This document shows, one piece after another, positions 7,093 to 7,175 of a stretch of DNA of 15,118 bases; within the stretch, counting starts at the first letter, position 1, and the number at the start of each line of letters is the position of its first letter. Under the pieces are notes generated by a model. That model had not been told where the DNA came from. It saw nothing but the letters and a program-made list of their open reading frames with translations, and did not search any database. Source of the DNA: Synergistaceae bacterium (lineage in GTDB: Bacteria; Synergistota; Synergistia; Synergistales; Aminobacteriaceae); the NCBI GenBank assembly GCA_031280635.1, contig JAITGK010000150.1, positions 1 to 15,118 of the forward strand, in the 5' to 3' direction. A program made the translations under genes and the position numbers.

Positions 7093-7175
7093 GGAAACGC
7101 TGACCCATGGGGCTTCGCCCCATACCCCACTTAGGGGTCGTAGACCCCTAAGAACCCCATTTGGTCAGCGTTTCC
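7093..7175 (-). other. 83-nt highly structured element in the pyrE 5' leader region: a 13-bp closing stem enclosing two GC-rich hairpins (three-way junction)
   Basis: GGAAACGCTGACC (7093..7105) pairs with GGTCAGCGTTTCC (7163..7175). Inside are ATGGGGC-ttc-GCCCCAT (7107..7123) and CTTAGGGG-tcgtaga-CCCCTAAG (7130..7152). Single-stranded ACCCCA/AACCCCA segments could form alternative pairings with the TGGGG runs. It lies 55-137 nt upstream of the pyrE ATG. Strand of function is ambiguous because the helices are palindromic. Confidence 0.5.

Follow-up and report, generated by a model that had tools for sequence, protein, structure and literature searches.

A stable three-way-junction element upstream of pyrE in a Synergistaceae genome is very probably a copy of a dispersed miniature inverted-repeat transposable element

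The window analyzed here, 15,118 nt in length, is one whole contig of a metagenome-assembled genome (MAG) of a Synergistaceae bacterium. It carries the orotate phosphoribosyltransferase gene pyrE and, directly upstream of it, a highly structured element at positions 7093-7175. The neighbor on the far side of the element from pyrE is a divergently oriented gene for a slipin/SPFH protein (7623-8768, + strand), and this gene parts pyrE from pyrF (8778-9668), pyrC, pyrB and pyrR, all of which are encoded on the - strand. An open reading frame (ORF) of 456 aa on the - strand at 7407-8777 was rejected as spurious, the slipin/SPFH gene being the actual neighbor. The initial annotation placed the element in the pyrE leader and proposed that it could be a regulatory RNA responsive to pyrimidines or phosphoribosyl pyrophosphate (PRPP). 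Its location was confirmed, with a gap of 55 nt between the end of the element and the pyrE start codon (ATG), but pyrE lies on the - strand and the strand relevant to its leader is therefore the reverse complement of the one originally described. As detailed below, the element is very probably a non-autonomous transposon of the MITE (miniature inverted-repeat transposable element) type, whose insertion into a TTGA target between the slipin gene and pyrE predates the divergence of the genomes of the window and its closest relative. The coordinates of its parts are given in Table 1.

Table 1. Positions of the element, its component parts and related features in the window
Feature	Position	Strand	Basis or remark
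Whole element including the 4-nt flanking direct repeats	7089-7179	-	Family reference orientation 'A', same sense as pyrE
Left flanking direct repeat TTGA, putative target-site duplication	7089-7092		Same TTGA at 7176-7179
Terminal inverted repeat, left arm GGAAACGCTGACC; family consensus GGAAGCRCTGATTAA	7093-7105		Sequence, fold, family alignments
Inner hairpin ATGGGGC-TTC-GCCCCAT, 7 bp; family hairpin 2, consensus GTGGGGC-GGA-GCCCCRC	7107-7123		Fold and alignment A2
Unpaired linker ACCCCA (GYGGGG on the family reference strand), kept in all copies	7124-7129		G51-G53 invariant in A2
Inner hairpin CTTAGGGGTC-GTA-GACCCCTAAG, 10 bp; family hairpin 1	7130-7152		Fold and core-hairpin scan
Unpaired linker AACCCCATTT (TGGGGTT on the reference strand), family-wide; AACCCCA at 7153-7159	7153-7162		Family alignments
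Terminal inverted repeat, right arm GGTCAGCGTTTCC	7163-7175		Sequence, fold
Right flanking direct repeat TTGA	7176-7179		Sequence, flank comparison
pyrE, orotate phosphoribosyltransferase (context, gene downstream of the element)	6463-7038	-	Pfam PF00156; best homologues so annotated in Synergistaceae
Second window copy, twin-hairpin variant without terminal repeats, filling the pyrR-pyrB spacer; reference strand antisense to the pyr operon	12022-12096	+	R1, 50.6 bits, E = 7.6e-9

The three-way-junction fold of the element arises because its terminal repeats make the outer stem while two palindromes in the core make the perfect inner hairpins that this stem surrounds. Folding energies were -49.8 kcal/mol (z = -8.6) for the + strand RNA and -51.5 kcal/mol (z = -6.7) for the - strand RNA, and for neither strand did any of 200 shuffles reach an equal value. 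The perfect 13-bp outer helix described initially was borne out, GGAAACGCTGACC pairing with GGTCAGCGTTTCC without a mismatch (14 bp if A7092-T7176 is counted). Both inner hairpins were perfect as well and the first had the 7 bp assigned to it, but the second proved to have 10 bp instead of 8. The window copy measures 83-91 nt, the other copies are 88-116 nt long, and the element contains no ORF.

A scan of one genome per species (185,579 species) with the core hairpin TTAGGGGTCNNNGACCCCTAA as the query yielded 24 loci, 19 of which (20 copies) were located in a single MAG, Synergistaceae bacterium Pc512_bin33. The remaining five loci were unrelated, with a chance expectation of about nine matches in total. 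The copies in Pc512_bin33 matched the window element beyond the searched hairpin, over the whole architecture of about 93 nt, while their flanks were unrelated. This architecture consists of (TTAA) GGAAGCRCTGATTAA, followed by TGGGGTTC, hairpin 1, GCGGGGYG, hairpin 2 (TGGGGCRGAGCCCCRC), AAGGnn and finally TTAATCAGCGYTTCC (TTAA), with the family consensus including the stretch TTAAGGAAGCACTGATTAATGGGGTTCTTAGGGGTC…. A covariance model (R1) built on 16 family copies (family alignments A1 and A2) recognized the window element at 7091-7177 on the - strand with 82.9 bits (E = 2.6e-16) and about 26 copies within roughly 132 kb of Pc512_bin33 loci. At least six full copies among these matches had played no role in fetching the loci. 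The copy density in this MAG amounts to about one per 15-20 kb, a rough and biased estimate.

The copies in Pc512_bin33 were intergenic and occurred in either orientation relative to the flanking genes, and many copies of the family were positioned 0-30 nt from stop codons or between convergent genes. The adjoining genes spanned a variety of unrelated functions, including those for MatE, DnaJ, Tex, D-Ala-D-Ala ligase (Ddl), Dam methylase, a chromate transporter, NfeD, a subtilase, an asparaginase, an amino-acid kinase, a DEAD helicase, FtsH, a cytidylyltransferase, DegT and a glycosyltransferase. A covariance-model search of relatives, suggested at the outset as the test for an RNA tied to pyrE or other nucleotide-metabolism genes, thus returned copies next to unrelated genes in both orientations and not at such genes alone. 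The alternative offered initially, a REP-like (repetitive extragenic palindrome) protein-binding palindrome, was correct insofar as the element is a dispersed repeat with more than 20 unrelated intergenic sites in one genome; it is more precisely described as MITE-like, for the reasons given below.

In the metagenome scans the window-specific variant of the terminal repeat (…GGTCAGCG) had no match and the general core only a single degenerate one (L028). Viral contigs, phages and plasmids contained no match to the family, only three short chance matches being found in Streptomyces plasmids. Rfam gave nothing for the whole window at gathering thresholds, and scans at permissive E-values (7040-7420, 7380-7700, 11980-13100, 12000-12160 and L003) gave no match for the element. 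A 'Clostridiales-2' Rfam match of 20.5 bits was rejected, as it needs a 60-nt insert and runs into pyrR. A literature search for MITEs of Synergistetes found no paper. The repeat family therefore appears to be undescribed, while the kind of element it represents is well known.

To establish how the element is distributed at pyrE itself, we compared the pyrE loci of eight Synergistaceae relatives, running R1 with its filters off wherever no element had been found. The closest genome (pyrE 92% identical), represented by L001 and by the longer scaffold L034 of the same species, contained an orthologous copy with the same 55-nt leader, and in L034 synteny was kept on both sides of the element through to the slipin gene. 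L003 (pyrE 74% identical) carried a variant without terminal inverted repeats (TIRs) between pyrF and pyrE, also matched by R1. No element was detected upstream of pyrE in the loci of five of the eight relatives (L002, L029/L030, L031, L032 and L033). In the first four of these pyrF and pyrE were overlapping, abutting or 26-34 nt apart, and L033 had no called gene in the 292 nt covered upstream of pyrE. Aligning L003 with L031, whose pyrE proteins are 89% identical, revealed a filled site in the former and a clean empty site in the latter. Such patchy presence upstream of pyrE is as expected for insertions and not for a conserved leader.

This distribution, together with the dispersal of the family, contradicts the idea that the pyrE leader holds a riboswitch or attenuator responding to pyrimidines or PRPP, in which the CCCCA segments would re-pair with the GGGG-containing stems. 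Both observations, absence from the pyrE loci of relatives and many palindromes in unrelated contexts, had been named at the outset as ones that would refute it. Several observations are in line with such a switch: the fold is very stable, the element lies in sense orientation 55 nt upstream of pyrE in the window and in L001/L034 and as a variant in L003, the stems are kept through paired changes between orthologues, and a gene of opposite orientation separates pyrE from the operon under PyrR control. However, the element recurs in nearly identical form, supposed switch segments included, at over 20 unrelated loci and in both orientations, the site in L031 is empty despite its closeness to L003, and the other window copy lies antisense to the pyr operon. 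The two unpaired C-rich segments do exist as claimed; they are kept across the whole family, and they are therefore not a switch specific to pyrE. The stems are not followed by a U-tract, and the pyrE Shine-Dalgarno sequence (AGGAGG) is well outside the structure, about 40 nt downstream, so that no expression platform is apparent. Neither an Rfam match nor a PyrR site was found near pyrE. Taken together, we consider a pyrimidine- or PRPP-sensing function extremely improbable.

With regard to PyrR, the absence of a PyrR box at pyrE was confirmed, RF00515 (PyrR binding site) having no match in 7040-7420 even at E <= 10. As to the companion claim, PyrR control of the main operon, there was an RF00515 match at 12666-12778 on the - strand, upstream of pyrR and overlapping its annotated start, which scored 50.5 bits (E = 1e-5) and fell just below the gathering score of 54. 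This match is probably a genuine PyrR attenuator, and the true start of pyrR may lie 3' of the first GTG. The element at pyrE resembles PyrR-binding attenuators in being a structured element in the leader of a pyr gene but differs from them in lacking any sequence or structure match near pyrE, the sole match in the window being the one upstream of pyrR. A sigma-70 promoter scan of 6900-7700 found no promoter, and a terminator scan of the same region found none at the element and two weak terminator-like sites on the + strand, both outside it.

Bacterial MITEs are defined as small elements (usually < 200 bp) without a transposase gene that possess terminal inverted repeats and flanking direct repeats, occur in many intergenic copies and form a stable fold (PMC3184786). 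The window element combines the small size and lack of an ORF with terminal repeats, a flanking duplication, dispersed copies, filled and empty sites and a stable fold. Its terminal inverted repeats, perfect over 13 bp in the window, range from 13 to 19 bp across the family, most copies having 15-19 bp, and follow the consensus GGAAGCRCTGATTAA / TTAATCAGCGYTTCC; the helix they form (helix 1) was 91% paired in the 16 copies. The 4-nt sequences on either side of 19 TIR-bearing copies matched as direct repeats at 59 of 76 positions, compared to 44 of 76 in the inverted register, with a TTAA-like consensus. Exact and non-palindromic direct flanks were present in the window (TTGA/TTGA), L026 (TTTG/TTTG) and L018 (TAAA/TAAA). 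It is these terminal inverted repeats and 4-bp flanking direct repeats that make the element MITE-like rather than plainly REP-like.

A DDE transposase supplied in trans would bind the terminal repeats and insert the element, which itself has no coding capacity, into TTAA-like targets, thereby duplicating 4 bp (TTGA at the pyrE site). The mobilized unit would comprise terminal repeats of 13-19 bp (consensus (TTAA)GGAAGCRCTGATTAA) around two GC-rich hairpins split by G-run linkers. Insertion of the pyrE copy into the spacer shared with the divergent slipin gene would have preceded the split from the L001/L034 genome, and the copy would have stayed in place. It would not sense pyrimidines, and if it influenced pyrE at all, this would be a by-product of a generic kind, for example of a stable stem-loop in or near the 5' untranslated region (UTR). 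We infer both this transposase mechanism and the insertion sequence (IS) family that would supply the enzyme.

A candidate source of the enzyme is the IS5 family, with which the element has in common a 4-bp duplication of a YTAR/TTAA-like target and a terminal repeat starting with GGAAG and ending with TAAG. The ends of the Escherichia coli IS5, GGAAGGTGCGAAYAAG, match the element repeat at 11 of 16 positions, and the resemblance of GGAAGCGCTGATTAAG to IS5 ends together with the 4-bp YTAR-like duplication presumably points to an IS5-family enzyme; both serve as a lead only. The window itself carries an IS of this family (2178-3030, about 850 bp). It looks complete, with perfect terminal inverted repeats of 22 bp, CTAG on both flanks, and the genes orfA (DUF4096, 2484-2954, - strand) and, overlapping it, orfB (DDE_Tnp_1, 2194-2676, - strand).

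A number of findings weigh against the element being a MITE. The IS5-family IS in the window was rejected as its parent, as its terminal repeats (…ATACTGTCGTCACGAGAC) differ from and are unrelated to those of the element, and no autonomous IS with the terminal repeats of the family was found among the loci examined. The flanks are AT-rich and TTAA-like, which entails a high background rate of matches, and with TTAA being palindromic, part of the direct-repeat signal could reflect target preference or an extension of the inverted repeats. Only two copies were documented in the contig of the window, one of them with terminal repeats, while the dispersal was seen in a related genome. The filled and empty pair of L003 and L031 concerns the variant without TIRs; for the TIR-bearing copy the corresponding evidence is weaker and consists of more distant relatives with adjacent pyrF and pyrE and no element. 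The subfamily without TIRs is also patchy in its presence and absence, which a purely TIR-dependent mechanism does not explain. Lastly, the paired, structure-preserving changes and the elevated identity between the orthologous copies described next could reflect selection on the pyrE copy at the level of the host.

Within the proposed structure, standard pairs occupied 95.8% of the cells in the 16 copies, and four pairs were changed on both sides. Paired changes of this kind are also expected of mobile palindromes, and the 16 copies are paralogous. In hairpin 2, pair 55/78 of alignment A2 was G-C, A-U or U-A depending on the genome. The 10-bp stem of hairpin 1 was invariant in the TIR-bearing subfamily (helix 2, in which 9 of 10 pairs never vary), its loop being variable, and between subfamilies the hairpin 1 stems differed with matching partners (TTAGGGGTC as well as TTAAGGGCC and TCAAGGGTC, the latter two representing a variant subfamily). 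Comparison of the window copy to its orthologue in L034 revealed a change from ATT/AAT to ACC/GGT in the outer stem, accompanied by an 8-nt deletion, and a change from T-A to A-T in hairpin 2. All three stems were perfect in the window copy, and the fold of the L034 copy was at -43 kcal/mol. Palindromy is maintained, as expected for the terminal repeats and hairpins of mobile elements. Selection is, we infer, not the sole route to perfect arms, which template switching in quasi-palindromes or conversion from another copy can also produce. Among the stem mismatches, G-U occurred at 13 positions and A-C at 7 without a clear strand bias, and copies lie in both orientations with respect to transcription; neither observation argues for an RNA function of one strand.

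The orthology in one close relative and the paired changes make a secondary effect in cis on pyrE mRNA possible. Compatible with a MITE origin, the copy at pyrE could have been co-opted as a stem-loop for mRNA stabilization or processing, as a promoter component, or to insulate pyrE and the divergent slipin gene from each other; effects of MITEs on neighboring genes have been documented in other families (PMC3184786). Its retention at one site by two genomes with 92% identity between their pyrE proteins, the paired substitutions that led to three perfect stems in the window copy, and the identity of 84% between the orthologues compared to 59-78% for adjacent intergenic DNA would all fit such a role. 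This difference in conservation is modest, the orthologues differing at 18 gapped positions, no promoter-like or terminator-like signal was present at the element, and the perfection of the arms is explicable without selection as outlined above. Co-option at pyrE is thus unlikely, and if the copy did affect mRNA stability or transcription, it would constitute a further case of MITE domestication, useful and unsurprising.

A different mode of spread is that of repeats of the REP or bacterial interspersed mosaic element (BIME) type, which are mobilized as hairpins of single-stranded DNA by a REP-associated tyrosine transposase (RAYT; Y1, IS200-like); the inner hairpins would then be the functional units. 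These hairpins are indeed GC-rich palindromes of REP size, their stems show compensatory changes among subfamilies, the twin-hairpin core was also found, patchily, without terminal repeats, and hairpin modules were duplicated as in BIMEs (L018 and L009). On the other hand, most copies possess terminal inverted repeats of 15-19 bp and 4-nt direct flanks, which are absent from RAYT-mobilized REPs. The conserved 5' GTAG-type tetranucleotide was missing from alignments A1 and A2, the unit is a composite of 85-100 nt where a REP would be one imperfect palindrome of about 20-40 nt, and the strand bias between G-U and A-C mismatches expected of a hairpin recognized specifically as a single strand was not observed. 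No RAYT gene turned up, no search of the genomes having been aimed at one. We rank spread by a RAYT second to the MITE interpretation, because REP/RAYT elements are without terminal repeats and target duplications, and regard it as improbable; such probability as it has derives chiefly from the twin-hairpin subfamily without TIRs.

The duplicated modules in L018 (4477-4585) and L009 (2065-2180) consist of two or three tandem, partly diverged copies of hairpin 1 within intact terminal repeats, and they indicate a modular internal expansion of the element.

The copy in the pyrR-pyrB spacer of the window has an orthologue in L034 (3584-3644), and similar copies are present in Pc512_bin33 (L027, 7808-7888) and in L003. 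On its reference strand a T-rich run (GGGTTTTCTGTTTTCTCT) follows the second hairpin and gives it a terminator-like look. The location of both window copies inside the pyr cluster is not remarkable, as this cluster accounts for about 40% of the contig. A more speculative proposal is that the twin-hairpin core with its conserved G-run linkers goes beyond passive selfish DNA and is a module selected for its structure, occurring with or without terminal repeats in Synergistaceae and at least one Clostridia MAG, and that it has been co-opted twice in the pyr cluster (at pyrE and between pyrR and pyrB). We deem this quite improbable; if true, the core would represent an element of RNA processing or stability, or a control point dependent on a protein or a G-quadruplex that uncouples pyrE from the PyrR-regulated operon. 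In the Clostridia MAG, from roe deer colon (L021, 5921-5955), 33 contiguous nt (GGGGTTCTTAGGGGTCTAAGACCCCTAAGCGGG) were identical to the Synergistaceae element where the search required 18, and they sit among a cluster of other GC-rich hairpins. This match suggests that the hairpin module occurs across phyla.

Among the known bacterial MITEs, Correia (Neisseria), RUP (Streptococcus pneumoniae), ERIC/IRU and Nezha (cyanobacteria) resemble the present family in their length of about 100 nt, the lack of an ORF, the terminal repeats around a core, the short direct flanks, the tens of intergenic copies in both orientations, the very stable stem-loop, and the filled and empty sites (PMC3184786, PMC2229807). 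In contrast, their sequences are unrelated to it, and its core holds two additional perfect GC-rich hairpins with G-run linkers, which results in a three-way junction and not in a single long hairpin. A further difference is the coexistence of a TIR-less twin-hairpin subfamily with the TIR-bearing one. The flanking duplication of the present family is 4 bp and TTAA-like, while Correia and RUP duplicate TA. The REP and BIME repeats of Enterobacteria, Pseudomonas and Stenotrophomonas are likewise GC-rich extragenic palindromes with compensatory stems, often located shortly past stop codons or between convergent genes and arranged as modular mosaics. The present family differs from these in its unit of 85-100 nt, its long terminal inverted repeats, its direct flanks and the lack of a GTAG-type head.

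The main value of these results is that of a correction, in that a riboswitch-like, very stable three-way junction in the leader of a biosynthetic gene is in all likelihood a mobile repeat. Scans for regulatory RNAs in Synergistaceae or other gut MAGs should mask this repeat family, and R1 and the consensus are usable as such a mask. The family also contributes a documented MITE in a phylum whose mobile elements are hardly annotated. Contig breaks and artefactual fold-backs in MAG assemblies are probably among the effects of its copies. The start of L001 is an example: the contig opens with a perfect palindrome of 26+26 nt derived from the element arm (1-54), and comparison to L034 identified the first 26 nt as a fold-back assembly artefact. 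MAG contig ends close to such repeats call for caution. The element as a synteny breakpoint with a second inverted arm in L001, where this contig departs from the window immediately upstream of the element, was rejected, given the synteny conserved on both sides in L034. Similarly, a solo repeat at position 1437 of L016 next to a 300-aa ORF was rejected as an autonomous IS: the repeat is part of a truncated copy, and on the opposite strand lies the real gene, a 386-aa ORF without a transposase match.

Several additional features of the loci were observed. Upstream of the slipin gene, roughly 170 nt (window 7491-7664) showed 87% identity to L034, compared to 59-73% for neighboring intergenic DNA, and had no match in Rfam; candidates for this block are a conserved 5' UTR, a small gene and an RNA of no known family. 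In L003 (1352-1390) three tandem copies of TTTGATTGGAGCG directly precede the pyrE ribosome-binding site, where L031 has a single one. A second, unrelated repeat family of about 100 nt, bounded by TTATAGYGG…CCRCTATAA, is represented at least four times in the contig (418-515, 1982-2181, 10978-11079 and 14479-14677), with one inverted copy between pyrC and pyrB, and not at all in the other loci examined; it is probably another MITE. The IS5-family IS of the window has inserted where a copy of this second family ends, directly upstream of a tsaB-like gene. Finally, perfect tandem arrays of (TGTGGCCC) (about 15 repeats) and (CCTGGCT) (about 13 repeats) are located near the contig ends, at 1-118 and 14310-14402, and may explain why the assembly stopped there.

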